From NCBI GenBank assembly GCA_964016885.1, contig OZ024762.1, positions 17,546,001 to 17,610,000 on the forward strand: DNA of 64,000 bases. The letters are read 5' to 3'. The stretch is from Eledone cirrhosa. Its lineage: Eukaryota. Below, piece by piece: positions 39,232 through 62,604 of the stretch. The notes beneath the pieces are model-generated. The model saw only the letters and a program-made list of their open reading frames with translations, was not told where the DNA came from and made no database searches. Numbering within the stretch: the stretch's first letter is position 1; each line of letters begins with the position of its first letter. The position numbers and the translations under genes were made by a program.

Positions 39232-39297
39232 AGAAACGGAAAGAAAGCGAGATAACACTTGGAATATGTCGTGTTATCTCGCTTTCTTTCCGTTTCT
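39232..39297. promoter_or_regulatory. Perfect 27-bp inverted repeat with 12-nt loop just upstream of the RNA-cassette TATA box
   Basis: agaaacggaaagaaagcgagataacac / gtgttatctcgctttctttccgtttct; function inferred from position only. Confidence 0.5.
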
Positions 39298-39360
39298 TTT
39301 TTTTTTTAAAAAAGAAAGAAATTTTTAGCTATAAATATGCCTATTTGACTCTGTAGAATT

Positions 39361-39525
39361 GCGGCTTGTGCGTGGCGCTGCACGTAGCGTTTCTGGCTTC
39401 GCTGTCGTACTTCGGTATGGCATGACCACTCGATCGTGTCTGAAGTTCGAATCGTTGCGGGGGTCGGCCGGGACCACAGCAGGCTGGCTTTATGCTGGCC
39501 TGCTCTCCCCCTCGCATGAGTTTTT
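39361..39525 (+). ncRNA. Putative Pol III structured small RNA gene, copy A (family unidentified)
   Basis: TATAAAT at 39330, A-box-like TGGCGCTGCACG at 39373, B box GTTCGAATC at 39445, T5 terminator, GC-rich hairpins including GUCGUAC-UUCG-GUAUGGC. Confidence 0.65.
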
Positions 39526-41719: not shown

Positions 41720-43100
41720 TACACTTACTTCTTTCAAGAATGTTTCTTACTGAACTACAGAATACATACATATTAATACCTTTACTTCTGTATACATACT
41801 GGTAAGTATGAGAGATATATTCTATATATACAGAAAGAGGTAAACTTACTATAGAATACTGTATTATATATAATCTATTCTGTATGTATATATACTTACT
41901 TCTATAGAACAATACACATATTAATACCTTTACTTCTGTATACATACTCGTAAGTATGAGAGAGATATAGAATATATATATTCTATATATACAGAAATAT
42001 CTAAACTTACTATAGAGTACTGTATTATATATAATCTATTCTATATGTATATATACTTACTTCTAAAGAACAATACATATGAATACCTTTACTTCTGTAT
42101 ACATACTGGTAAGTATGAGAGAGATATAGAATATATATTCTATATATACAGAAAGAGGTAAACTTACTATAGAATACTGTATTATATATAATCTATTCTA
42201 TATGTATATATACTTACTTCTATAGAACAATACACATATTAATACCTTTACTTCTGTATACATACTGGTAAGTATGAGAGATATATTCTATATATACAGA
42301 AAGAGGTAAACTTACTATAGAATACTGTATATATACTTACTTCTATAGAACAATACACATATTAATACCTTTACTTCTGTATACATACTGGTAAGTATGA
42401 GAGAGATATAGAATATTTATTCAATATATACAGAAACAGGTAAACTTACTATAGAATACTGTATTATATATAATCTATTCTATATGTATATATACTTACT
42501 TCTATAGAACAATACACATATTAATACCTTTACTTCTGTATACATACTCGTAAGTATGAGAGAGATATAGAATATATATATTCTATATATACAGAAATAT
42601 CTAAACTTACTATAGAATACTGTATTATATATAATCTATTCTATATGTATATATACTTACTTCTAAAGAACAATACATATGAATACCTTTACTTCTGTAT
42701 ACATACTGGTAAGTATGAGAGAGATATAGAATATATATTCTATATATACAGAAAGAGGTAAACTTACTATAGAATACTGTATTATATATAATCTATTCTA
42801 TATGTATATATACTTACTTCTATAGAACAATACACATATTAATACCTTTACTTCTGTATACATACTGATATGTATGAGAGATATAGAATACATATTCTAT
42901 ATATACAGAAAGAGGTAAACTTACTATAGAATACTGTATTATATATAATCTATTCTATATGTATATATACTTACTTATATAGAACAATACACATATTAAT
43001 ACCTTTACTTCTGTATACATACTGATATGTATGAGAGATATAGAATACATATTCTATATATACAGAAAGAGGTAAACTTACTATAGAATACTGTATTCTA
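41720..43100 (+). repeat. ~150-160-bp AT-rich satellite, ~8-9 copies
   Basis: cttctgtatacatact recurs near 41785, 41934, 42092, 42251, 42374, 42533, 42692, 42851 and 43008. Confidence 0.95.
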
Positions 43101-45742
43101 TATATATGTATGTATGTATACATATGCATATATATACATATGCATATATATACATATGTATATATATATATACATATGTATATATATACATACATATGTA
43201 TATACATATACATATGTATATATATACATACATATGTATATACATACATATGTATGTATACATACATATGTATGTATGTATATATACATAGGTATTTATA
43301 CATACATAGATATGTATACGTATGTATGTATACATACGTATGTATATATATACATACGTAAGTATGTATATATATACATACGTAAGTATGTATACATGCA
43401 TACGTGTGTATACATACATACGTATGTATATATATATACACAAGTATGTATATATATATACACATACGTATGCATGTATATATATACATACGTATGTATA
43501 TATACATACGTACGTATGTATATACATACACATGTATGTATATACACACGTATGTATATACACACGTATGTATGTATATATACATACGTATGTACATACA
43601 TGTGTATGTATATACATACGTACTTATGTATAGATACATACGTATGTATATACATACGCATGTATGTATATACATATGTATGTATATACATACGCATGTA
43701 TGTATATACATACGTATGTATATATATACATATGTATATACATACGCATGTATGTATATATACATACGTATGCATGTATACATACATATGTATGTATACA
43801 TGCATACGTATGTATATATACATACATACGTATGTATACATACGTACGTATGTATATATACATACGTATGTATACATACATACGTATGTATTTACATACG
43901 TATGTATTTACATACGCATGTATGTATATATACATATGTATGTATACATACGTATGTATATATACATACATACGTATGTATATATACATACATACGTATG
44001 TATATATATATACATATGTATGTATATATACATACGTATGTATATATACATACGCATGTATGTATATATACATACGTATGTATACATACATACGTATGTA
44101 TACATACATACGTATGCATGTATACATACGTATGTATATACATACGTATGCATGTATACATACGTATGTATGTATATACATACGTATGCATGTATACATA
44201 CATACGTATGTATATACATACATATGTATATATACATACGTATGTATATACACATACATACGTATGTATACACACATACGTATGTATACACACATACGTA
44301 TGTATACACACATACGTATGTATATATACATACGTATGTATACATACATACGTATGTATACATATACATACGTATGTATATATATACATATGTATGTATA
44401 TATACATACGTATGTATACATACATACGTATGTATACATACATATGTATATACATACGTATGTATATACATACGTATGCATGTATACATACATACGTATG
44501 TATATACATACATATGTATATATACATACGTATGTATATACACATACATACGTATGTATATATACATACATATGTATACATACATACGTATGTATACATA
44601 TACATACGTATGTATATATATACATATGTATGTATATATACATACGTATGTATATACATACGCATGTATGTATATACATACGTATGCATGTATACATACG
44701 TATGTATATACATACGTATGCATGTATACATACGTATGTATATACATACATACGTAAGTATGTATATACATACGTATGCATGTATACATACATACGTATG
44801 TATATACATACATATGTATATATACATACGTATGTATATACACATACATACGTATGTATACACACATACGTATGTATATATACATACATACGTATGTATA
44901 TATACATACATATGTATACATACATACGTATGTATACATATACATACGTATGTATATATATACATATGTATGTATATATACATACGTATGTATATACATA
45001 CGCATGTATGTATATATACATACATATGTATATATACATACGTATGTATATACACATACATACGTATGTATACACACATACGTATGTATATATACATACA
45101 TACGTATGTATATATACATACATATGTATACATACATACGTATGTATACATATACATACGTATGTATATATATACATATGTATGTATATATACATACGTA
45201 TGTATATACATACGCATGTATGTATATATACATACGTATGTATATATACATACATACGTATGTATACATACATACGTAAGTATGCATATACATACGTATG
45301 TATATACATACATATGTATATATACATACGTATGTATATACACATACATACGTATGTATACACACATACGTATGTATACACACATACGTATGTATATATA
45401 CATACATACGTATATATATATACATGCATGTATACATACGTATGTATGTATATATACATACGTATGTATATATACGTATGTATACATACATACATATGTA
45501 TGTATATATACATACGTATGTATGCATACATACGTATGTATATACGTACGTATGTATACATGCATACGTATGTATGTATATATATACATATGTATGTATA
45601 CATATGTATGTATGTATATATATACGTATGTATATATATACATACATACGTATATATATATACATACGTATGTATATACATACATATGTATGTATATATA
45701 TATACATATGTATGTATATATACATACATATGTATGTATACA
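43100..45742. repeat. Complex (TAYR)n microsatellite field, ~2.6 kb
   Basis: Directly visible. Confidence 0.97.
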
Positions 45743-47563
45743 TCTTTAATTCCTTAGCTATATTTATATAATACACTAGTCTAGAGATATAAGGGTATTA
45801 ATATGTATGTAGGTTGTTGTCTTTATATCTGTGTAGTGTAACTTCTAAATTTACAATGAAGATATGCTTTATATACACAAAAGTGTCTATATGGTGAGTA
45901 TGCCTGTCTAGAGGAGAACAGGGTATTGATGTATCCTTTAAAGAAAAGGGTAACTGCTTATATATGGTTCTACATACTGTACTCTATTGAACACAACTTC
46001 AATATATAATGGAGGTACTTCTTCCAATATAAAGAAGGTATATTATAGACATGAAGTAAGCTTTGTGTGTCATATTGAATACAGTTTTTCTATATATGTG
46101 TGTATGTAAAGAACACTAAATTTCTTTGTATTTATACAGTTAGCTCTCTTGCTTCTTAGGAAGCATGTACACGTTCTACTATGAGATGCTTATACACAAC
46201 TAGAAGAACAATAGCAGTAGTTTCCTAAGAGACGTATGTGTAGTATCTAGCGAGGATGTATTGATATGTATGTACAGATCAAAACCTCTTATCTTATATA
46301 TGTATGATCACTTCCAGGTTTCTACATACACGTGTATAATATAAAGAGACACACACAATGTGGGTTTAGATATATTCTATAGAATACAGTTTCTAATATA
46401 CAGACATGTCTACATTGATGTTATTTACCTGTATATAGAGATGGCTTGTTTCTAGGAAATAATTTATATAATATGAATCTAGTATACAGTGACAGAAGGT
46501 TTTTGTCTTCCTACAGTGTAAGAGGTGTCTAGTGTGTGTATATATACAGGGAGTAAATAATAAGGGAACAAAGGAAAATACTGGTTTATTCTTTTATTTC
46601 ACAATTTATTTACCTTTCTTCTTGAGATAGGGTTGTAGTAGTCTCCAGGTCTGGTGCTGTTCCTTAGGAATATAAAATAGGTTAGTTGTGTATATAGTGA
46701 AGAACGTTTATATATGGATGATGTAGCTATCAAGCAGGTGAGGATGCTAGAAGTAGTAGTAAGGAGTCTTACGGCAGAGTAATGGAGCTACCATGCTTCG
46801 TTAGATATAAAATATAACTGTATGGTTTAGCTTCTATATTCATATGTCTAGAGAAGGTTTAGTTTCATGTCTATTATTCCAGTATGAACAAGTTTGTATA
46901 TTGCGCCTCATAAGTATCTGTTATGATAGAAGGGAGACCGTTTATATATGAATATAGCTTCATGTGTACGTATGTCCCCAGGATTCTTCCTCTACATGGT
47001 TTAGAATAAATTTACGGCTAATACATAAATATGCCTGAAGTGTTTGTGTATTTACGTGAAAAAGTGTCTTCTTGTATATAGAATATCTGCGTGTGTATTC
47101 AGGTATAAGGTTTATATACAGAAGATAAAATGTGTATAGAGAGGAAGCTTGGTTATATTTCCTTACAAGTATGTATATAGTATCGAGAGAAGATTTAGTT
47201 GTAACATGTTAGAAGAGGTGTGTATATATATATATACAGATCATGGTTAGTTTTGTTTCATAATAGAGGAGGGTAACATGTATGTTTAGTTAGAAGAGGT
47301 AGCTGCGTGTATATATTTAGTTTTGTTTCTTTAAAAGACATGGCAACTTACTTTTGTGTGTGTATATACGGCAAATAAAACTTTACATACCTCTTTACAC
47401 GAACGTAAAATCCAAACCGGTATCGTTAATAGTCCCAGAGTAAATAGAATGATGAGAAATGACAACAAAGTAAGAAGAGTTCCACAAACCGGAAGTAGTT
47501 CAATGTCAACAAAGGGCAAATAATTCCAATTAAGGGGAGATAACTCTCGTCAAATTGTTTGGC

Positions 47564-47728
47564 AAAAACTCATGCGAGGGGGAGAGCAGGCCAGCATAAA
47601 GCCAGCCTGCTGTGGTCCCGGCCGACCCCCGCAACGATTCGAACTTCAGACACGATCGAGTGGTCATGCCATACCGAAGTACAACAGCGAAGCCAGAAGC
47701 GCTACGTGCAGCGCCACGCACAAGCCGC
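47564..47728 (-). ncRNA. Putative Pol III structured small RNA gene, copy B
   Basis: Reverse complement of copy A with two pairing-compatible changes; TATAAGT upstream. Confidence 0.65.
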
Positions 47729-49322
47729 AATTCTACAGAGTCAAATAGGCATACTTATAGCTAACATTTTCCTTCTTTTTTAAAAAAAAAAGAAACGGAA
47801 AGAAAGCAAGATAACACGACATATTCCGAGTGTTATCTCGTTTTCTTTCCGTTTCTCTTTCTATATAAATATAACGGGATATATAGCCATTAAGTAACTG
47901 CTAGTGTTTTGTACATATATAACGGGATATACACGAATAGAAGCCAGGGAATATGTCGTAAAGGGTTGACTTATATAGGGAGTCAATAGTTTGACCATTT
48001 TCGCCAACTTCAAATTCTACGTAAATAAGGTTCGCATTTTTGCCCACTTCTCAGACATAAGATAGGGAGGAGGGTCACCTTATATTCGAGTATTTTGTAC
48101 ATCTATTCTTGTTAGACTAGACCGGCATCATCATGGGTAGAGCCGACCAGGTGCTACTGCGTTGAACGAGACTAAGGCTGCGATGGTCCTCAGGGCACTG
48201 CTGTCAATCGTCTTTGTGAGGGGCCACGTTTCTGCTCCATAGAGGAGAAGACTGATGCATCTTTTCAGAACAATTAATATGTAGGTAACATAGCCTTAGA
48301 GAGATCTGTATTTGTAATAGTTAGTATCGATTTGGGTAATCTTAAGACCATGATTCCAATCATCAATATATGTATTGATTAAACCTAAATATAGTATATA
48401 AAGAAGTGGATTTTAAAATATGCAATGATAGTGTCGAGAGAAGGCTTAGTTAGTTACTTCTAACAATGTACCACTATGAATAAGACAGAAGGCGGTGTAT
48501 GTAGATAGAATGTTTAGTTTTCCTGAGTATGAAGGGGTTTTAGTTATTATTCTTAGTAAAAAGACGGTTATATTATACATTTACGTCTCTAACATTCCTC
48601 CTGTATATGAAGGGTAGTGAAATATATTCTTGTGTCTCAGGAATAACTTACGTGTTTATCGATGAATTTAAGGGACAACTAAAAGATTACATACCTCTTT
48701 AGAAGAATGAAGGTGTATATATAAATGTAGCTTTATATGTGTATATTGATCTAGATAGGAAACGTTTCTTCCAGTGTATGGATTATAGAGGTGAATGCAT
48801 ACACTAAAGAAAGTTAATATATATATCTAAGACTGTATTTTCGAGTGTTTAGCAATGAATTAAAATATACATGGCAAATAAAGCGTTCGTATAGGTAAAT
48901 TAGAGGGTATTTTACCTCAGCTAAAGAACATTTATATATATATAAATCTAGTTTTGTGTGTGTATTTAGGTTTAAATAAAACAATATGTACGTCTCTAGA
49001 ATCTTTCTGTATATAGAATAATTGTTTCTACTTTTGGCACAAGGCCAGCAATTATCCAGTGCATTACTGGTACTTTATTTTATCGACCGCATAAGGATGA
49101 AAGGCATATAGAATAATGTATGTCTGTGAGTGTATATACGGCAAATAAAACATTACATACCTCTCACCATTAGTATAATATCCAGACTGATTCTATCAAA
49201 TTACACGAGTAAATCCAAACGATGTTAACAGTTTAATTCAATAAAGAAGAATGACAACAAACGAGAATAGTTCCAATCAGGGGCAAGTAATTCAAACGAT
49301 AACTCTCGGCGAATTTTTTAGT

Positions 49323-49476
49323 AAAAAAATCAATGCGAGGCGGGGACGCAGGCCAGCATAAAGCCGGGCTGCTGCCGCCGCAACGATTCGATCTTCAGAC
49401 ACATAGAATGGTCATGCCATACCGAAGTACGACAGCGAAGCCCGAAACGTTACGTGCAGCGCCATGCACAGAGCGC
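49323..49476 (-). ncRNA. Putative Pol III structured small RNA gene, copy C (diverged paralog)
   Basis: Mirror of copy D; TATA, A box, B box GATCGAATC, T7 terminator. Confidence 0.6.
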
Positions 49477-50509
49477 AACTCTACTGAGTAAATTAGTCAT
49501 ACTTATAGTTAGAATTTTATTTATTAAAAAAAAATATATATATAGAAACGGAATGAAGACGAGATAACTGAGGGCGTGGAGAAATATCTCTTTCTGAATA
49601 TATATATTTCGTATGGTGAGAGTTGAGATCTCTACCGAATAATTATCAATATTATACTTCGTCTCCGAAATATTTTCAGAAAGAAATTACTTTTTCACGA
49701 CCGTGTTACCTTACTTTCATCCCGTTTCTATATGTAACAAGTTTAAACTACTAGTATTTAATACATATATATATACAGAACAATAAGTATATTTACTTCA
49801 AGATAGTAATGTTTATGTTAATACAGAAAATAAAAAAATGCAAACCATCGATCTTAGTAATTAGTATCAATCACTAATTATCTATTTTGGTAATAAGCAT
49901 CTTAAGACCATGATTTCCTTCATCGATATGTGATTAGACCAAAATTTAGTATAATATATAAAGACTGTTCTCAGCTTATGACCAGTTTGCTTGGTGTTAA
50001 GTGTCTGGGAGTACAAGACTCTCCCTGGATAGTACGCTGGTCTACCACAGGACTAACTCCTCGGCTGTGAGTGCTGGAGCAATGTGATGAATGCAGAACT
50101 TCCAAACTGTGAGAGTTACATGTATGCATGGACCTGCAACTCCTAAGGGAGTCATACAGGCCACACATTGACATACAGTATTTCTAGGGCACTTTTTAAA
50201 ACCTGGCAGACCCATCTCCTCTCCAGGTCTGAATACAGCAGATTTCTTCCAGAGAAACAGAAGAATCAACCTCAATACTAGACTGGTACTTTGTTTTATC
50301 AACCTCAAATGGATGAAAGGCAAAGTTGACCTCAGCAGGATTTTAATTAAGAGAACTGAAGGCATTTTCTGTTACATTCATATATACATACTTACTTTGT
50401 CTAATAAACAAAACATCTTCTCTCTACACACACATAACATATAAAGCTACATTTATATATACCTCTTCTAAGAAATTAAACCTACTCTAGACTTACACAT
50501 AGATACAGT

Positions 50510-50857
50510 TCATCATCATCATCATCATTTCATTTTACGTCCGCTTTTCCCTGCTTGCAAGGGTGGGACGGGAATTGATGCTGGCTTGATTTCTACAGCT
50601 GGATGCCCTTCCTAACACCAACCTCATTTACAGTGAGTGCTGGGTGCTTTTTTGCCGTGGCACCTCCACGACCACTTTGCAGTGGAATTATAGGGACCCC
50701 AGTCCCTATCATCTCATTTCTACAGCTGAGTAAACTGGAGCAATGTGAAATAAAGTGTCTTGCTCAAGGAAACAACACATCACCCAGTCTGAGAATTGAA
50801 CTCACAACCTTTCGATTGCAAGCCCAATGCTCTAACCACTAAGCCATGTGCCTCCAC
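50510..50857 (-). mobile_element. Same tRNA-derived SINE, mirror copy
   Basis: Reverse complement of 59626-59970. Confidence 0.88.
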
Positions 50858-51494
50858 AGTTATATATAAATACTTACCTTGTCAAATAAACACAACTAAA
50901 TCTTCTCTAGTCAGACACACAAAGCTACATTTATATAAACATTCTTCTCTACAAAAGAGGATCAGCTGAAAAGCTCATAGGCTGGCTTTGAAGAAGTGAT
51001 GCTAGAACTGCGAGATATTGTGGTTAGGTTCATTATCATAGGACTTGGTGGAGCAATCAAAATTCACTGCCAACTCATGTACAACTTTATGATGTTCTTG
51101 ATTCATCGGTGAAAAAGAATGACTCTGATAGTTCTGTTTCATGTGAGGAAGACAAAAGGAAACCTTCAGAGTGTGCATTGAGCAATATGGGATATTTCTA
51201 GAATGTAACTAATGCTAACTTGAATCATCCTTGGACATCATCATACATGGTATATATATATAGTGTGTTTAGTACAGTGTAGTTGTAGCTAACTAGGTAT
51301 TTGGTTTTATGAAATGAAAGGGACAAAAAAACAAACTATATATATACACTGATATATGTGTTATAAGCAATCCAATACCACTGTTGGATAGATAGAGTGC
51401 TTAATCCTGCTTACACCAAAGTTTATGGATTAAGGTGGTGCAAACACAACACTTAAATAAAGGAAACAATATGTGGCCATAGTACAGAAAATTC

Positions 51495-51552
<58 letters not shown>

Positions 51553-51556
<4 letters not shown>

Positions 51557-51960
51557 TCGGGCTGGATTCTGTTGAGGGTCTTTGCCACAAGTGACATCAA
51601 TGAGATTCCCCTGTAGTTGTTCATGTTAGAAAGATCTCCCTTCTTTGGTACTGAGATGATGTTAGTGATCAAGGGCAACTTTCTCCAGTGCCTGGTTACA
51701 GAACTCCAGGATGATATCATCAAAATCACACCTCATCATCACTTTTGATGCCTCCCCATGGGTCATGATCTTCTTGGTTCGCTGAAGCCCCTCTCTGGCG
51801 AAGGTCCTGTCTCAATATCCAGTTCCTCAAACAGCTGTCTGATCTCCCTGGTATTCTGGGCTGTCGAAGGTGGCTCTCCTAGTAGGGTCTTAAAATGGTC
51901 CAGCCTCTTCTTATCCCCAGATCTAACTCAAACTACTTCTCTTCCTTCCTGTAATCTCGT
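51553..51960 (-). mobile_element. LINE RT fragment (RTE-like); mirror at ~58522-58929 on +
   Basis: IISVPKKGDLSNMNNYRGISLMSLVAKTLNRI. Confidence 0.85.
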
Positions 51961-52384
51961 TGATCATCATCCAGCTCTCTTTACACTTATATATATATAC
52001 ACTGACCTCCTACAAGGTTACATCTCAAAGGAGGTTTACACCAGTTCTTTTATCCCGAAACTTTTTCAGGAACTGTGGACAAGGAGTTTCTTATGGTTGT
52101 AAGTTTTTTGAAAGGGGAAAAATAACAGAAGGTGATTGTCGTGTGAAGGAGGAAGATTGGTAGAGCAATGGACTCCACAGACACTGGTAAGGGTAACTTA
52201 GAACAGGATGGAAAGGTATCCATGGTGAGTGAAAAACCTAACCATTGTTTCAGCTACAGCAGCAGAGGAGTTAAGTTATGGTGGGTTTGAAGAAAACAGA
52301 GTTGGATGTCTTCAATGTAGTGACTATATAGACCAGAGGCTTTCAACATAACTGATGAGTGTTTCAGTGGAGACCAGCAACCTC

Positions 52385-52595
52385 TGAGGAGCAGGGACTA
52401 CAGTAGTAGAGATAGAATAGGCAGAGGGAACGGCATATTTAGGGGCTGGGGAGAAGCAGAGACCACTGTAGTAGAGGTAGAGAGGGAACAGCATATTTAG
52501 GGTTGGGGAGGAGCAGAGACCATTGTAGTAGAGGTAGAGAGGGAACATCATATTTATGGGCTGGGGAGGAACAGAGACCATTGTAGTAGAGGTAT
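52385..52595. repeat. ~57-bp tandem repeat, ~3.5 copies; mirror at ~57888-58098
   Basis: agagaccaytgtagtagaggtagagagggaaca unit. Confidence 0.85.
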
Positions 52596-54154
52596 AATGT
52601 GCAGAAGGAGGAGAGACAATAATTGTGGACCAGAACCTGTTGAATTGTTGATAAAGCTGGAGTGTCATCCCTTAATGTAGCAACCTTGTCAACATGAATG
52701 TCCTTGGGGGATAAACCCCTTTTCTACACGTACTTGATAATACCACGATGCCAAATGTTGTCCATTTTCAAGAGGTCATTACTAATTACATTTGAAGTCC
52801 TCTTTCAACAGTCAGATGTCAGTTTACTTGGAAAGAAACAATGCAGTTATTATTAATAAGAAGAGTTGAAATTAATTCATGCAAGATTTCCCAGCTCTAG
52901 CATCAGTCCTTCATAGTCAGCCAACCTTCGTACTTCTGCTGGGTCAAGCCCGACGGAGACTGACGTCTTAAACAAGCCCCAACAAATAAGAAAGATTTAG
53001 AAGAGAATATACTAATTACTAGATATTCACACAAAAGTGACATTAGAATTATTGCTGGAAATAGCAGCCAAATATTTATCGCTCGCCACGTTTTAAAATA
53101 ATGAAGGACACATTAGAAGATGTAATTTTAGATAGTCATATATACACATATTTGTCAACGCTGGAATCTCATTGATTCTATATACATAAGTCGGTTCTCA
53201 GAAGACCTATTCAGGTTATGGGAACTGTTTGTCCCCCGTGTAAAAATTTGGCGTATATATATATAAATATATATATATACTTATATATGTCTGTATGCAT
53301 TTTGTTGGCGTTTAAATGGTGAAAATTTCATAAGGTAGCTGTTGTTTACTTTCATCGACAAGTCAGACCTGAGCGATCAAGACATATATTTACATATACA
53401 TAATCAAAAGTAAAAACATTGTTAATATCTTCCTACACAGATAAAATATAAAAGATTGTATTTACATGTGTCACAGCTAATTCACCTCCGTAATTCTTAG
53501 GAAACCTGGCTTCTATTTCTAGCAAGTGGAGCGTAGACGTAGAGACGTGTTGCTGTTGTTTACTTTTATTCACAGGTCTTGAACGAGCAAGACAAGATGA
53601 CCCGACATGTGTGTAATCGATGGTATACCTGCCGTGACCATCCTGTGTTTATATGATTATCAAGGTACTCACATCTACATCGTTGAATGCACCTTTCATT
53701 GTTTTAAAAGGGGTTGTAGAAGACAGAACATCTGAGGGTGAGAGGCCGGAGATCGTCAGTGAGTGGCTTTAAATTAATTAGCCATGATTCTATGAAATAA
53801 AGAAGCGAAATCACTTTGAAGAAAAATAGGAGAACAATAGTAATTATTATGAGGCCGGTGTAGCGATTACATATTGCCCTTTGTTTACATTAACCACTCC
53901 CGACACCATGGTAATTAGATATTCAGATTACAGGGAGGTGTGGGATGGAAGTAATTCTTTTATTTATTTACTTAACAACAAACACGGTGGCAAAGAGTAA
54001 ATTAAAAAAACTCGCCTTTTTATTTTAAAAAAAATCAAGCCTAACCTCTCCCATGATGCATCAGTGCGGCTAAATAAGTCGCAACAATGGGTGCATAAAT
54101 TATTTCGAATTTCTTAGTAATTATTTGTATATACTTACATTGTTTGCATATAAG

Positions 54155-55163
54155 GTAGGCTTAAAAGTTCATAGGCTCACTATGAAAGAGTGATGCTAGG
54201 GCTGTGCAATCTTGCATGTTGAAAAATAAACCTCATTTGGTCATTCCATGAGAGTATCTTGGTCAGCCTATGAAGGAGTGATGCTAGAGCTGTGCAATCT
54301 TGCATGTTGAAAAATAAACCTCATTTGGTCATTCCATGAGAGTATCTTGGTCAGCCTATGAAGGAGTGATGCTAGAGCTGTGCAATCTTGCATGTTGAAA
54401 AATAAACCTCATTTGGTCATTCCATGAGAGTATCTTGGTCAGCCTATGAAGGAGTGATGCTAGAGCTGTGCAATCTTGCATGTTGAAAAATAAACCTCAT
54501 TTGGTCATTCCATGAGAGTATCTTGGTCAGCCTATGAAGGAGTGATGCTAGAGCTGTGAAATCTTGCATGTTGAAAAATAAACCTCATTTGGACATTCCA
54601 TGAGAGTATCTTGGTCAGTCTATGAAGGAGTGATGCTAGAGCTGTGAAATCTTGCATGTTGAAAAATAAACCTCATTTGGTCATTCCATGAGAGTATCTT
54701 GGTCAGCCTATGAAGGAGTGATGCTAGAGCTGTGCAATCTTGCATGTTGAAAAATAAACCTCATTTGGTCATTCCATGAGAGTATCTTGGTCAGCCTATG
54801 AAGGAGTGATGCTAGAGCTGTGAAATCTTGCATGTTGAAAAATAAACGTCATTTGGACATTCCATGAGAGTATCTTGGTCAGTCTATGAAGGAGTGATGC
54901 TAGAGCTGTGAAATCTTGCATGTTGAAAAATAAACCTCATTTGATCATTCCATGAGAGTATCTTGGTCAGCTTATGAAGGAATGATGCTAGGGCTCTGCA
55001 ATCTTGCATGTTGAAAAATAAACCTCATTTGGTCATTCCATGAAAGTATCTTGGTCAGCCTATGAAGGAGTGATGCTAGAGCTGTGAAATCTTGCATGTT
55101 GAAAAATAAACCTCATTTGGTCATTCCATGAGAGTATCTTGTCAGCCTATGAAGGAGTGATGC
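54155..55163 (+). repeat. 88-bp satellite (~11 copies) derived from mariner termini
   Basis: Unit tatgaaggagtgatgctagagctgtgmaatcttgcatgttgaaaaataaacctcatttggtcattccatgagagtatcttggtcagcc; period 54269 to 54357. Confidence 0.95.
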
Positions 55164-55244
55164 TATATATATATATATATATATAGTTATATATACATGT
55201 ATATATATATATACATGTATAAATATATACATGTATATATATAC

Positions 55245-55475
55245 ATGAGAGATTTGCATGACGTGGAGGTGGATGTCCTCAAGAAACATCTCGACACCTT
55301 GTTATCCAGAATCCCGGATGAGCCCACAGCAAGACACGAGGGAAACCTAAGGGCAGCAGCAACAAACTCCCTCTTACACCAGTAGCCAACCTATACAGGC
55401 TGGAGATAAAATGTGTAGCAACAAGGGCGGTGCCCCAGCCTGGCCTCAGCCGGATGGCTGAAACAGGTAAAAGAG
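55245..55475 (+). mobile_element. 3' end of a CR1/L2-group-like LINE
   Basis: [37 protein letters not shown], followed by a 3' UTR and TA tail. Confidence 0.65.
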
Positions 55476-55501
55476 TATATGTGTATATATGGATATATAC
55501 A

Positions 55502-55594
<93 letters not shown>

Positions 55595-55786
55595 GTATAT
55601 CTATATCTATATCTATATATAAATGTATTGTTATACTTTGGGAGGGTCATGTTGCCAATAAGAAACACACGCACCAGTTGCTTTCACTTCAATTTATTAT
55701 ATATTTATAAATTTATAAATTTACAAATTTACAAACTTATAAATTTCTGGTTGGTTGGTTCCACAACCAGATAGTTGTTTATATAT

Positions 55787-55831
55787 AGTCATAGTCCTTT
55801 CGTCACACACTCTGTGACCTCTTCAGTGACT
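55787..55831 (-). ncRNA. Minimal type I hammerhead ribozyme motif, inverted copy
   Basis: Exact reverse complement of 55941-55985. Confidence 0.7.
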
Positions 55832-55940
55832 GGGGATTCCTTTCTTTGTTTCTGTGCCTTTCCTTTCTTCTGCCCTACGCCAAACAAAATGGCGTAGGAC
55901 AGACGAAAGGAAAGGCACAGAAACAAAGAAAGGAATCCCC

Positions 55941-55985
55941 AGTCACTGAAGAGGTCACAGAGTGTGTGACGAAAGGACTATGACT
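55941..55985 (+). ncRNA. Minimal type I hammerhead ribozyme motif
   Basis: AGUCA-CUGAAGA-G-GUCACA(GAGUG)UGUGAC-GAAA-GGAC-UA-UGACU. Confidence 0.7.
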
Positions 55986-57550
55986 ATATATAAACAACTA
56001 TCTGGTTGTGGAACCAACCAACCAACCAACCAGAAATTTATAAGTTTGTAGATTTGTAAATTTATAAATTTATAAATATATAATAAATTGAAGTGAAACA
56101 ATTGGTGCGTGTGTTTCTTATTGGCAACATGACCCCCCCAAAGTATAACAATATCGGTTTCAACACACGATTTCAGATAAAGAATCTTGCTAAACAAATT
56201 CAGAAACGAAATATATATAAATGTATATATATATAATGATGTGTGCACCTATTAAAAATCCACAAAATCCTTTTAATATTGTCGTTTTCGTCCATAGCAA
56301 GTGTTCTTTCGAAATAATTTTTGCACCCATTTTTGCGATTAAGTAAAGACAGAGTTATCGTTCTTGAGATTTCGTCTTGGTGAAATTTAAGGAACTGATG
56401 TCGCTAAAGCGTCAACTTATTTAGCCGCACTGTTGCATCATGGGAGAGGTTAGGCTTGATTTTTTTTAAAATAAAAAGGCGAGTTTTTTTAATTTACTCT
56501 TTGCCACCGTGTTTGTTGTTAAGTAAATAAATAAAAGAATTACTTCCATCCCACACCTCCCTGTAATCTGAATATCGTGTCGGGAGTGGTTAATGTAAAC
56601 AAAGGGCAATATGTAATCGCTACACCGGCCTCATAATAATTACTATTGTTCTCCTATTTTTCTTCAAAGTGATTTCGCTTCTTTATTTCATAGAATCATG
56701 GCTAATTAATTTAAAGCCACTCACTGACGATCTCCGGCCTCTCACCCTCAGATGTTCTGTCTTCTACAACCCCTTTTAAAACAATGAAAGGTGCATTCAA
56801 CGATGTAGATGTGAGTACCTTGATAATCATATAAACACAGGATGGTCACGGCAGGTATACCATCGATTACACACATGTCGGGTCATCTTGTCTTGCTCGT
56901 TCAAGACCTGTGAATAAAAGTAAACAACAGCAACACGTCTCTACGTCTACGCTCCACTTGCTAGAAATAGAAGCCAGGTTTCCTAAGAATTACGGAGGTG
57001 AATTAGCTGTGACACATGTAAATACAATCTTTTATATTTTATCTGTGTAGGAAGATATTAACAATGTTTTTACTTTTGATTATGTATATGTAAATATATG
57101 TCTTGATCGCTCAGGTCTGACTTGTCGATGAAAGTAAACAACAGCTACCTTATGAAATTTTCACCATTTAAACGCCAACAAAATGCATACAGACATATAT
57201 AAGTATATATATATATTTATATATATATACGCCAAATTTTTACACGGGGGACAAACAGTTCCCATAACCTGAATAGGTCTTCTGAGAACCGACTTATGTA
57301 TATAGAATCAATGAGATTCCAGCGTTGACAAATATGTGTATATATGACTATCTAAAATTACATCTTCTAATGTGTCCTTCATTATTTTAAAACGTGGCGA
57401 GCGATAAATATTTGGCTGCTATTTCCAGCAATAATTCTAATGTCACTTTTGTGTGAATATCTAGTAATTAGTATATTCTCTTCTAAATCTTTCTTATTTG
57501 TTGGGGCTTGTTTAAGACGTCAGTCTCCGTCGGGCTTGACCCAGCAGAAG

Positions 57551-57840
57551 TACGAAGGTTGGCTGACTATGAAGGACTGATGCTAGAGCTGGGAAATCTT
57601 GCATGAATTAATTTCAACTCTTCTTATTAATAATAACTGCATTGTTTCTTTCCAAGTAAACTGACATCTGACTGTTGAAAGAGGACTTCAAATGTAATTA
57701 GTAATGACCTCTTGAAAATGGACAACATTTGGCATCGTGGTATTATCAAGTACGTGTAGAAAAGGGGTTTATCCCCCAAGGACATTCATGTTGACAAGGT
57801 TGCTACATTAAGGGATGACACTCCAGCTTTATCAACAATT
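57551..57840 (+). mobile_element. Mariner transposon 5' end with N-terminal transposase remnant; mirror at ~52642-52932 on -
   Basis: From 57718: MDNIWHRGIIKYV*KKG/LSPKDIHVDKVATLRDDTPALST (mariner HTH-like); terminus begins ta|cgaaggttggctga. Confidence 0.8.
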
Positions 57841-58926
57841 CAACAGGTTCTGGTCCACAATTATTGTCTCTCCTCCTTCTGCACATTATACCTCTACTAC
57901 AATGGTCTCTGTTCCTCCCCAGCCCATAAATATGATGTTCCCTCTCTACCTCTACTACAATGGTCTCTGCTCCTCCCCAACCCTAAATATGCTGTTCCCT
58001 CTCTACCTCTACTACAGTGGTCTCTGCTTCTCCCCAGCCCCTAAATATGCCGTTCCCTCTGCCTATTCTATCTCTACTACTGTAGTCCCTGCTCCTCAGA
58101 GGTTGCTGGTCTCCACTGAAACACTCATCAGTTATGTTGAAAGCCTCTGGTCTATATAGTCACTACATTGAAGACATCCAACTCTGTTTTCTTCAAACCC
58201 ACCATAACTTAACTCCTCTGCTGCTGTAGCTGAAACAATGGTTAGGTTTTTCACTCACCATGGATACCTTTCCATCCTGTTCTAAGTTACCCTTACCAGT
58301 GTCTGTGGAGTCCATTGCTCTACCAATCTTCCTCCTTCACACGACAATCACCTTCTGTTATTTTTCCCCTTTCAAAAAACTTACAACCATAAGAAACTCC
58401 TTGTCCACAGTTCCTGAAAAAGTTTCGGGATAAAAGAACTGGTGTAAACCTCCTTTGAGATGTAACCTTGTAGGAGGTCAGTGTATATATATATAAGTGT
58501 AAAGAGAGCTGGATGATGATCAACGAGATTACAGGAAGGAAGAGAAGTAGTTTGAGTTAGATCTGGGGATAAGAAGAGGCTGGACCATTTTAAGACCCTA
58601 CTAGGAGAGCCACCTTCGACAGCCCAGAATACCAGGGAGATCAGACAGCTGTTTGAGGAACTGGATATTGAGACAGGACCTTCGCCAGAGAGGGGCTTCA
58701 GCGAACCAAGAAGATCATGACCCATGGGGAGGCATCAAAAGTGATGATGAGGTGTGATTTTGATGATATCATCCTGGAGTTCTGTAACCAGGCACTGGAG
58801 AAAGTTGCCCTTGATCACTAACATCATCTCAGTACCAAAGAAGGGAGATCTTTCTAACATGAACAACTACAGGGGAATCTCATTGATGTCACTTGTGGCA
58901 AAGACCCTCAACAGAATCCAGCCCGA

Positions 58927-58986
<60 letters not shown>

Positions 58987-59625
58987 GAATTTTCTGTACT
59001 ATGGCCACATATTGTTTCCTTTATTTAAGTGTTGTGTTTGCACCACCTTAATCCATAAACTTTGGTGTAAGCAGGATTAAGCACTCTATCTATCCAACAG
59101 TGGTATTGGATTGCTTATAACACATATATCAGTGTATATATATAGTTTGTTTTTTTGTCCCTTTCATTTCATAAAACCAAATACCTAGTTAGCTACAACT
59201 ACACTGTACTAAACACACTATATATATATACCATGTATGATGATGTCCAAGGATGATTCAAGTTAGCATTAGTTACATTCTAGAAATATCCCATATTGCT
59301 CAATGCACACTCTGAAGGTTTCCTTTTGTCTTCCTCACATGAAACAGAACTATCAGAGTCATTCTTTTTCACCGATGAATCAAGAACATCATAAAGTTGT
59401 ACATGAGTTGGCAGTGAATTTTGATTGCTCCACCAAGTCCTATGATAATGAACCTAACCACAATATCTCGCAGTTCTAGCATCACTTCTTCAAAGCCAGC
59501 CTATGAGCTTTTCAGCTGATCCTCTTTTGTAGAGAAGAATGTTTATATAAATGTAGCTTTGTGTGTCTGACTAGAGAAGATTTAGTTGTGTTTATTTGAC
59601 AAGGTAAGTATTTATATATAACTGT

Positions 59626-59970
59626 GGAGGCACATGGCTTAGTGGTTAGAGCATTGGGCTTGCAATCGAAAGGTTGTGAGTTCAATTCTCAGACTGGGTG
59701 ATGTGTTGTTTCCTTGAGCAAGACACTTTATTTCACATTGCTCCAGTTTACTCAGCTGTAGAAATGAGATGATAGGGACTGGGGTCCCTATAATTCCACT
59801 GCAAAGTGGTCGTGGAGGTGCCACGGCAAAAAAGCACCCAGCACTCACTGTAAATGAGGTTGGTGTTAGGAAGGGCATCCAGCTGTAGAAATCAAGCCAG
59901 CATCAATTCCCGTCCCACCCTTGCAAGCAGGGAAAAGCGGACGTAAAATGAAATGATGATGATGATGATG
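59626..59970 (+). mobile_element. tRNA-derived SINE with CORE-like body and RTE-derived 3' tail
   Basis: A box tggcttagtggttaga, B box gagttcaattc, body ccttgagcaagacactt, tail cccacccttgcaagcagggaaaagcggacgtaaaatg..(atg)n. Confidence 0.88.
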
Positions 59971-61004
59971 AACTGTATCTATGTGTAAGTCTAGAGTAGG
60001 TTTAATTTCTTAGAAGAGGTATATATAAATGTAGCTTTATATGTTATGTGTGTGTAGAGAGAAGATGTTTTGTTTATTAGACAAAGTAAGTATGTATATA
60101 TGAATGTAACAGAAAATGCCTTCAGTTCTCTTAATTAAAATCCTGCTGAGGTCAACTTTGCCTTTCATCCATTTGAGGTTGATAAAACAAAGTACCAGTC
60201 TAGTATTGAGGTTGATTCTTCTGTTTCTCTGGAAGAAATCTGCTGTATTCAGACCTGGAGAGGAGATGGGTCTGCCAGGTTTTAAAAAGTGCCCTAGAAA
60301 TACTGTATGTCAATGTGTGGCCTGTATGACTCCCTTAGGAGTTGCAGGTCCATGCATACATGTAACTCTCACAGTTTGGAAGTTCTGCATTCATCACATT
60401 GCTCCAGCACTCACAGCCGAGGAGTTAGTCCTGTGGTAGACCAGCGTACTATCCAGGGAGAGTCTTGTACTCCCAGACACTTAACACCAAGCAAACTGGT
60501 CATAAGCTGAGAACAGTCTTTATATATTATACTAAATTTTGGTCTAATCACATATCGATGAAGGAAATCATGGTCTTAAGATGCTTATTACCAAAATAGA
60601 TAATTAGTGATTGATACTAATTACTAAGATCGATGGTTTGCATTTTTTTATTTTCTGTATTAACATAAACATTACTATCTTGAAGTAAATATACTTATTG
60701 TTCTGTATATATATATGTATTAAATACTAGTAGTTTAAACTTGTTACATATAGAAACGGGATGAAAGTAAGGTAACACGGTCGTGAAAAAGTAATTTCTT
60801 TCTGAAAATATTTCGGAGACGAAGTATAATATTGATAATTATTCGGTAGAGATCTCAACTCTCACCATACGAAATATATATATTCAGAAAGAGATATTTC
60901 TCCACGCCCTCAGTTATCTCGTCTTCATTCCGTTTCTATATATATATTTTTTTTTAATAAATAAAATTCTAACTATAAGTATGACTAATTTACTCAGTAG
61001 AGTT

Positions 61005-61158
61005 GCGCTCTGTGCATGGCGCTGCACGTAACGTTTCGGGCTTCGCTGTCGTACTTCGGTATGGCATGACCATTCTATGTGTCTGAAGATCGAATCGTTG
61101 CGGCGGCAGCAGCCCGGCTTTATGCTGGCCTGCGTCCCCGCCTCGCATTGATTTTTTT
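61005..61158 (+). ncRNA. Putative Pol III structured small RNA gene, copy D (diverged paralog)
   Basis: TATAAGT at 60974 (31 nt upstream, as in A), same UUCG hairpin, B box GATCGAATC, T7 at 61152-61158. Confidence 0.6.
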
Positions 61159-62604
61159 ACTAAAAAATTCGCCGAGAGTTATCGTTTGAATTACTTGCCC
61201 CTGATTGGAACTATTCTCGTTTGTTGTCATTCTTCTTTATTGAATTAAACTGTTAACATCGTTTGGATTTACTCGTGTAATTTGATAGAATCAGTCTGGA
61301 TATTATACTAATGGTGAGAGGTATGTAATGTTTTATTTGCCGTATATACACTCACAGACATACATTATTCTATATGCCTTTCATCCTTATGCGGTCGATA
61401 AAATAAAGTACCAGTAATGCACTGGATAATTGCTGGCCTTGTGCCAAAAGTAGAAACAATTATTCTATATACAGAAAGATTCTAGAGACGTACATATTGT
61501 TTTATTTAAACCTAAATACACACACAAAACTAGATTTATATATATATAAATGTTCTTTAGCTGAGGTAAAATACCCTCTAATTTACCTATACGAACGCTT
61601 TATTTGCCATGTATATTTTAATTCATTGCTAAACACTCGAAAATACAGTCTTAGATATATATATTAACTTTCTTTAGTGTATGCATTCACCTCTATAATC
61701 CATACACTGGAAGAAACGTTTCCTATCTAGATCAATATACACATATAAAGCTACATTTATATATACACCTTCATTCTTCTAAAGAGGTATGTAATCTTTT
61801 AGTTGTCCCTTAAATTCATCGATAAACACGTAAGTTATTCCTGAGACACAAGAATATATTTCACTACCCTTCATATACAGGAGGAATGTTAGAGACGTAA
61901 ATGTATAATATAACCGTCTTTTTACTAAGAATAATAACTAAAACCCCTTCATACTCAGGAAAACTAAACATTCTATCTACATACACCGCCTTCTGTCTTA
62001 TTCATAGTGGTACATTGTTAGAAGTAACTAACTAAGCCTTCTCTCGACACTATCATTGCATATTTTAAAATCCACTTCTTTATATACTATATTTAGGTTT
62101 AATCAATACATATATTGATGATTGGAATCATGGTCTTAAGATTACCCAAATCGATACTAACTATTACAAATACAGATCTCTCTAAGGCTATGTTACCTAC
62201 ATATTAATTGTTCTGAAAAGATGCATCAGTCTTCTCCTCTATGGAGCAGAAACGTGGCCCCTCACAAAGACGATTGACAGCAGTGCCCTGAGGACCATCG
62301 CAGCCTTAGTCTCGTTCAACGCAGTAGCACCTGGTCGGCTCTACCCATGATGATGCCGGTCTAGTCTAACAAGAATAGATGTACAAAATACTCGAATATA
62401 AGGTGACCCTCCTCCCTATCTTATGTCTGAGAAGTGGGCAAAAATGCGAACCTTATTTACGTAGAATTTGAAGTTGGCGAAAATGGTCAAACTATTGACT
62501 CCCTATATAAGTCAACCCTTTACGACATATTCCCTGGCTTCTATTCGTGTATATCCCGTTATATATGTACAAAACACTAGCAGTTACTTAATGGCTATAT
62601 ATCC

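Follow-up and report, generated by a model that had tools for sequence, protein, structure and literature searches.

A multicopy family of structured, probably Pol III-transcribed RNA genes in the octopod Eledone cirrhosa

Four gene copies in the window

The window analysed here is a stretch of 64,000 nucleotides on contig C23 (OZ024762.1) of the 3.0 Gb assembly of Eledone cirrhosa. It contains four GC-rich islands, designated copies A-D (Table 1). All four are found at the sites given by the original prediction, and genome-wide pattern counts and fold z-scores place them beyond chance; the positions 47564 and 49323 on the minus strand, which had been quoted for copies B and C, are terminator ends and not starts. 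In all four copies a TATA element is located 31 nt before the G at which the GC-rich part begins, as had been predicted. The B box is found at +84 or +85, and a run of five or seven T follows after 160 nt in type A and after 147 nt in type D. Copy C lies 1.75 kb upstream of copy B on the same strand. Copies C and D are mirror images within an inverted repeat of 99.8% identity, which ends at a 200-N assembly gap (62605), and they are therefore not independent copies. None of the four copies carries a tail or a target-site duplication (TSD) and their flanks are shared, both in agreement with the prediction.

Table 1. Features of the copies and of their surroundings in the window (positions as in the 64,000-nucleotide stretch)
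Feature	Position	Strand	Remarks
Inverted repeat upstream of copy A	39232..39297	.	27-bp perfect arms, 12-nt loop; most other copies have an imperfect form
TATA element of copy A, TATAAATA	39330..39337	+	31 nt before +1
Copy A, type A	39361..39525	+	predicted Pol III transcript of ~160-165 nt; +1 G 39361; T5 39521-39525
A-box-like stretch of copy A	39373..39384	+	not conserved beyond flank rate
Constrained 75-nt core of copy A	39384..39458	+	predicted 17-pair P2 capped by hairpins P3 and P4, three-way junction
B box of copy A, GTTCGAATC	39445..39453	+	within 3' strand of P2; slowest-changing stretch measured
3' hairpin P6 of copy A	39478..39504	+	folds; neutral in old copies; lost from certain amplified subfamilies
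Spacer between convergent copies A and B	41815..45743	.	TA-rich satellite together with a 157-bp array
Copy B, type A	47564..47728	-	+1 47728; T5 47568-47564; TATA 47759-47752; convergent partner of copy A
6.2 kb inverted repeat, 99.8%	47877..62604	.	47877-54079 versus 56415-62604, around an 88-bp array
Copy C, type D	49323..49476	-	+1 49476; GATCGAATC; T7 49329-49323; TATA 49507-49500
Copy D, type D	61005..61158	+	TATA 60974-60981; +1 61005; T7 61152-61158

The palindrome upstream of copy A is perfect in this copy and imperfect in the old copies of the family, and its left arm was seemingly corrected to fit the right arm. Four sequencing runs (two samples of one study) cover the islands, but they cover the spacer and the flanks as well, so that these reads behave as DNA and are uninformative on expression.

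Family size, types and mode of spread

Genome-wide pattern searches gave 105 matches (reversed control 0) and 135 matches (control 6), a pattern for the old type gave 90 (reversed control 0) and a two-motif pattern 178 (control 0). A profile search over the loci obtained from these matches resulted in 225 distinct copies, some fragments included. This number is a lower bound, as the two-motif pattern revealed a few further copies outside of the 225. The four copies and two paralog types of the original prediction thereby become at least 225 copies and three types, the third being older. The young types A and D comprise 92 and 31 copies, respectively, and the old type E comprises 102, with a median identity within the group of 73%. 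Copies of types A and D are found on C22, C23, C25, C8 and two small contigs, those of type E mostly on C20, C15, C21, C23, C13 and C12. On the tree of the copies the chromosome label requires 39 steps compared to a mean of 110 after shuffling, showing that amplification was mainly local. A convergent partner is located within 13 kb, around a satellite, for 82 of the 92 A copies, and in 26 of the 31 cases a D copy is found upstream of an A copy, at a distance of 1.4-1.8 kb.

The upstream promoter stretch is kept in 200 of the 225 copies and both flanks are kept in 186. The outer ends of nine inverted pairs lie between 330 and 2947 nt from the gene and have neither a terminus nor a TSD in common; likewise, homology between copies on different chromosomes has ragged limits, as judged from 135 long-flanked copies. 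The fixed termini and TSD expected of a foldback element or non-autonomous DNA transposon were thus not found. Judged from its sequence, the family has spread by segmental duplication of a core of ~600 bp, and not as a SINE or a TIR transposon does. This bears out the proposal that it was multiplied by DNA duplication; instead of the thousands of copies with tails or TSDs that had been named as the mark of an ordinary SINE, hundreds were found, most of them with the promoter stretch.

Promoter and terminator

A B box fitting GWTCRANNC is present in 196 of the 225 copies, a TATA element in 197 and a run of at least four T in 216; all three are found together in 176 copies, and 49 lack at least one of them. 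The distance between TATA and +1 is 31 in 144 of the 147 copies in which both motifs were matched. Of all stretches measured, the B box changes most slowly. The A-box-like stretch, which in copy A has one mismatch to the A-box consensus, changes at the rate of the flanks and is not conserved, and the same rate holds for the 5' 24 nt of the RNA. Of the layout originally proposed, TATA, B box and T run thus stand and the A box falls. The U6 genes of the same genome have their TATA at about -30, and the octamer-like element upstream of these genes was not seen upstream of the A or D copies. Given the conserved TATA and B box, the unconserved A box and the absence of the octamer, the promoter of the family most likely consists of TATA and B box.

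Predicted fold and selection on base pairing

The islands are predicted to fold more stably than shuffled sequences, with z-scores of -3.12 for type A (1 of 200 shuffles as stable) and -3.35 for type D (0 of 200). In the consensus fold predicted from 27 diverse copies, a long helix P2 is capped by the hairpins P3 and P4. P2 has 15-17 of its 17 pairs in 150 of 193 copies, and 160 of the 193 contain three to five G·U pairs. If P3 or P4 stacked on P2, a hypothetical arrangement, the additional 6-8 pairs would result in a predicted helix of ~24-26 layers. The predicted folds include a terminal stem for most copies of type A (78 of 81) and type D (20 of 21) and for 24 of 64 in type E, and this stem is not constrained. 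Some amplified subfamilies keep the 75-nt core almost alone; at C21:18509815-18512963, three tandem short-form copies spaced 1574 bp apart have kept only the core and the terminator.

Classical covariation was not significant: the score was reached by 91 of 500 shuffles and only one pair shows a double-sided change, from C-G to U-A in the A/D lineage. As the family is young, changes were counted on a tree instead, which was built from 193 distinct copies after 23 of the 225 had been dropped for short flanks or core and nine as identical. These events were counted by parsimony on a tree of paralogs between which gene conversion occurs, and they are thus not fully independent. At the 15 G-C pairs, C>T changes amount to 0.33, close to the level of the flanks, and G>A changes (0.12) and transversions (0.11 each) to about a third of that level; C>T exceeds G>A in 12 of the 15 pairs. 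The flanks are symmetric, with 0.36-0.41 for non-CpG C>T, 0.37-0.38 for G>A and 0.30-0.35 for transversions, which argues against a transcription-linked mutation process as cause of the asymmetry in the pairs. Among Watson-Crick pairs, 107 changes lead to G·U compared to 51 leading to A·C (p=1e-5), and this excess identifies the folding strand as the sense strand. For G·U pairs, pair-keeping transitions occur at a nearly neutral rate and transversions are depleted (9 and 5 compared to 25.6 expected each); as G·U converts to Watson-Crick pairs at near-neutral rates, the wobble identity itself is not clearly selected.

In the old copies, pair-breaking changes are found at 0.29 of the flank rate. 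Resolved by helix, the ratios of pair-keeping and pair-breaking changes in E copies are 0.66/0.35 for P2, 0.71/0.23 for P3 and 1.05/0.23 for P4, and the effect in P2 is also seen outside of the B box and outside of the E search pattern. The P6 hairpin of the same copies, with 1.0/1.01 of expectation, constitutes an internal neutral control. In the young A/D copies, including those of the window, the effect is borderline, with 30 pair-keeping and 39 pair-breaking changes compared to 40.2 and 86.0 expected (p=0.05), and an excess of keeping over breaking is absent for P4. No pairing asymmetry was detected on the tree for the upstream palindrome and flank. In P3 and in the 3' strand of P2, further letters, including two loop U's, are near-invariant beyond what pairing needs. 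Search patterns based on the core inflate its overall conservation, but not the asymmetry between keeping and breaking. By these sequence counts on the modelled fold, purifying selection maintains the sense-strand pairing of the predicted Y-shaped core of 75 nt.

Chimeric copies as fossil evidence of transcription

The promoter stretch is missing in 25 copies, several of which stand alone on large chromosomes. Five of these solo copies, on C1 (L232), C7 (L234), C3 (L204), C4 (L205) and C2 (L268), start at ~+1 to +10; their fusion partners are a full SINE, a SINE tail, a TA repeat or an RTE-like tail. They have the appearance of template-switch chimeras in an invertebrate, two of them with TSDs. 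Six promoterless solo copies were searched for TSDs, and a TSD surrounds the whole unit in two of the six. In the C1 chimera two extra letters precede G+1, from which the copy continues for ~130 nt into a full-length SINE; the TSD around the whole unit is 16 nt long and has one mismatch. The C7 chimera starts at +8, stops after three T of the terminator run and is fused to the native 5' start of a full-length SINE, with a TSD of 10 nt. A 10-nt match at the C4 copy falls inside the following SINE and was not counted as TSD, and none was found for the remaining three. The same search applied to 60 promoter-bearing copies as control reached at least 10 only once.

In the available excerpt of PMC4476161 it is described that TSD-flanked U6-LINE/SINE chimeras arise through template switching, and the C1 and C7 chimeras have the same anatomy as these U6-LINE and U6-SINE chimeras. 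Both are, by their sequence, likely reverse-transcribed copies and thereby fossil evidence of transcription. Their anatomy suggests that RNA of the family was once present in the germline with the predicted ends, and the 5' end predicted for copy A agrees with that of the C1 chimera. Both chimeras derive from E-type genes, so that for the A and D copies of the window transcription is suggested by their intact promoter. The original description as a structured Pol III-type RNA gene thus gains support both from the strand-specific selection on pairing and from two TSD-flanked RNA-SINE chimeras.

Comparison with known RNA classes

As proposed with the original prediction, which had matched the islands to no known RNA, the window was compared with Rfam. 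No strong match was found: at gathering threshold the whole window gives only two tRNA-like SINE heads and nothing on the islands, scans by E-value, run on copy A, an old copy and another four loci, give nothing on the island, and no Rfam miRNA model matches it. ARAGORN reports no tRNA gene over the window. A tRNA or tRNA-derived SINE was rejected, as the island has no tRNA match and typical copies have neither tail nor TSD. The family has an internal B box and occasional retroposition in common with tRNA-derived SINEs, but it keeps its upstream promoter stretch, has no tail, and its retroposed copies are rare SINE chimeras. The 5' end presumably resembles 7SL, and an origin from 7SL was tested on this account and rejected: in comparisons of seven copies with the SRP RNA of the genome 139-287 of 300 shuffles scored as high, and for the 5' ends 176 and 185 of 1000. 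An identity as 7SK or U6 was likewise rejected, as seven copies compared with the genome's own genes did no better than shuffles. A reading of CUGAAGA...GAA as hammerhead-like was dropped, since Rfam gives no match and the motif is not intact in type A or in several copies of type E. Searches of viral contigs and of metagenome contigs with one exact core pattern each, both narrow tests, gave 0 matches.

The genome's own U6, vault, 7SK and SRP genes lie at other sites than the family. At C3:221183987-221251257, a tandem cluster comprises 14 matches that exceed the cut-off of the Rfam vault model, with scores of 34.1-43.3 bits. They fall into two types, one of 87 nt and one of 93 nt, and have T runs and a TATA-like sequence upstream; by these features they are likely the vault RNA genes of this animal. 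In the excerpts available of the literature on vault RNA in octopus and mollusc, no description of these genes was found, and the main text of the giant squid genome paper does not mention vault (PMC6962438). The one 7SK gene that exceeds the cut-off is located at C2:194684573-194684851; its TATA lies at about -30, and it has a T run. U6 and SRP genes are also found in tandem arrays, at C19:31.78-31.84 Mb and C12:42.10-42.13 Mb, and two U6 units (L103, L106) have a SINE-like stretch in place of the promoter upstream of TATA. The family is similar to vault RNA in its TATA-like element, internal boxes and T run and in a B-box region that pairs with an upstream strand, but it is longer, has a three-way junction core and no model score. 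An identity as vault RNA was rejected, there being no RF00006 match and only weak similarity, the best of 14 comparisons being reached by 6 of 300 shuffles. The vault-type comparison of the original prediction is thus confined to the layout, since separate vault genes exist. An assignment to Y RNA was rejected as well, as RF00019 does not match the island and the terminal region is unconstrained; genome-wide, the Y model has 0 matches among 51 scored candidates, by which its absence from the genome is not shown.

VA-I and EBER RNAs are ~160 nt long, similar to the length predicted here. The RUF6 ncRNAs of Plasmodium and the 4.5SH RNA of mouse are likewise Pol III RNAs that are rich in GC, present in many copies and multiplied at the level of DNA; the family differs from these two, as it has no Rfam match to either and no consistent neighbouring gene family. 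The closest genomic analogy is to snaR. According to the available excerpt of PMC3045588, segmental duplications spread snaR as a core duplicon in which ~0.5 kb stem from the parent sequence and the flanks vary; as far as this excerpt goes, both are lineage-restricted, structured Pol III families spread mostly in this way. In contrast to snaR, which derives from Alu/7SL and is ~117 nt long, the Eledone family has no significant similarity to the 7SL of its own genome, carries a TATA at -31 and comprises at least 225 copies on many chromosomes. With VA-I, EBER1 and nc886 it shares an internal Pol III B box, and the wobble-rich helix of ~20-30 layers at a three-helix junction that is described for them (PMC6599070, in excerpt) would have a counterpart in P2 if this helix stacked as considered above. 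It differs from them as a host-chromosomal, multicopy family without Rfam match, and its B box lies in the stem and not in the apical loop as in VA-type RNAs. VA, vault and snaR RNAs have a terminal stem, which in the family is predicted for only 24 of the 64 E copies. By analogy, the family resembles snaR in its genomics and possibly VA/nc886 in function, and is a member of none of these.

Interpretation and alternative explanations

Taken together, the family very probably represents transcribed RNA genes with a selected structure. The lack of an Rfam match, the fold under selection and the two likely reverse-transcribed copies point to a likely new Pol III RNA family. TFIIIB and TFIIIC would use TATA and B box and start at G+1, Pol III would stop in the T run, and the many gene copies would give a high RNA dosage. 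The 17-pair, wobble-rich P2 may stack on P3 or P4, and such a helix would be long enough for a dsRBD protein of the PKR, ADAR, NF90 or Dicer type and shorter than the length that activates PKR. In the available excerpt of PMC6599070 it is stated that VA-I needs at least 20 bp to inhibit PKR, that activation begins from ~33-35 bp, that VA-I, EBER1 and nc886 are wobble-rich and that VA RNAs are Dicer substrates. As the ~24-26 predicted layers fall within the limits given there for VA-I, we tentatively favour, modelled on snaR, VA and nc886, a ligand or decoy for dsRNA-binding proteins, although this mechanism as a whole is more doubtful than not. An extension of it, by which octopods evolved an abundant Pol III RNA from more than 200 genes that titrates ADAR or PKR, as a host counterpart of adenovirus VA RNA tuning A-to-I editing or dsRNA sensing, is speculative and unlikely.

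The same Pol III RNA could instead serve as scaffold for one specific protein that reads the P3 hairpin and the junction, for instance a regulator of translation or splicing in neurons or germline, in line with proposals for snaR, BC1 or 4.5SH RNA. This would account for the near-invariant letters in P3, the 3' strand of P2 and the two loop U's and for the short C21 subfamilies that keep only core and terminator, and it would parallel snaR-A, which is bound to ribosomes and found in brain and testis (PMC3045588, in excerpt). We regard it as possible but doubtful, as neither a partner nor a complementary target emerged from the analysis and part of the core conservation is inflated by the search patterns. 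A precursor from which Dicer or the piRNA pathway cuts small guide RNAs out of the P2 arm is quite unlikely: conservation is highest in the 3' arm of P2 (~22 nt) and VA RNAs provide the precedent of Dicer substrates (PMC6599070, in excerpt), but the conservation of the arm is explained by B box and pairing, P2 is capped by a three-way junction and not by a simple loop, and Rfam miRNA models do not match. A further alternative is a diverged stand-in for the RNA of a known RNP, most plausibly a Y RNA, the partner of Ro60, or a second vault RNA. The Y slot appears open, given the matchless Y model, and the B box pairs with an upstream strand as in the vault layout. This reading is decidedly improbable, as the island matches neither model, vault genes exist separately with only the weak local similarity described above, and the terminal stem is the unconstrained part of the family. 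In Y RNA, it is the terminal stem that carries the Ro60 site.

A further explanation places the selected unit at the level of DNA. It could act as a TFIIIC-binding chromatin element or, within a foldback arm or a non-autonomous DNA transposon, as a single-strand hairpin, with any transcript as by-product. The convergent partners around a satellite, the 27-bp upstream palindrome common to copies and the B box as the best-kept motif are in line with this, and G·T is tolerated in DNA hairpins too. It is nevertheless quite improbable in view of the inverted pairs without shared terminus or TSD, the ragged ends of homology across chromosomes, the absence of a unit-linked transposase ORF among the ORFs listed and the palindrome without pairing asymmetry; furthermore, the retro-chimeras begin at +1 (C1) and end in the T run (C7). 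Finally, the family could be a dead SINE or a GC-rich repeat without function that was multiplied as a passenger of segmental duplications. This would explain that many copies are truncated or decayed, and other RNA genes were also amplified in this genome. The strand-specific depletion of pair-breaking changes, with P6 as neutral control, and the upstream promoter stretch, which a SINE does not keep, largely refute this reading and make it very improbable.

Significance of a probable Pol III RNA family in an octopod

To our knowledge, the set of animal Pol III small RNAs is short, and lineage-specific additions such as snaR, nc886, BC1/BC200 and 4.5SH are known mainly from mammals. The transcribed, structured family favoured here would add an unrelated Pol III family in an octopod, with sequence evidence for a selected structure and fossil evidence of transcription. 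Cephalopods show heavy RNA recoding, the most known from any animal lineage, and if the partner were ADAR or PKR the family would bear on how cephalopods handle abundant dsRNA and editing. No description of the family was found in the excerpts available of the octopus, cephalopod and mollusc RNA and repeat literature, including that of PMC6962438; an entry as unclassified repeat, in Repbase, Dfam or small-RNA supplements, is possible.

Neighbouring genes and other features of the window

A consistent neighbouring gene family was sought in 58 long stretches around family copies and not found. A link to zinc-finger clusters was considered and rejected, as a C2H2 array is present in one of 38 long stretches and a single motif in 20 more. 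A C2H2 array lies 3 kb from one family cluster (L166:1962-3056). An exon of Sina/SIAH RING type is located ~19 kb from another cluster (L333:3102-3515). In the window itself, positions 1-24883 are a tandem duplication with a period of ~11.3 kb and 96.8% identity, in which fragments of an RTE reverse transcriptase and of a Helitron Pif1 are found. Among named homologs, the best for the Pif1 fragment is from Octopus sinensis, with 64% identity, and the very abundant SINE and the other repeats also seem to be of octopus type. The tRNA-like matches, just over the Rfam cut-off, lie at 50785-50848 and 59633-59696, mirrored in the inverted repeat, and are likely SINE heads. Near C23 ~17.645 Mb, ~30 kb past the last copy of the window's cluster, an exon resembles the Pol III subunit Rpc31/POLR3G (L325:5039-5500; Pfam PF11705, E 8e-6, below cut-off); it is the single one among the loci examined and its position near a family cluster is probably a coincidence.
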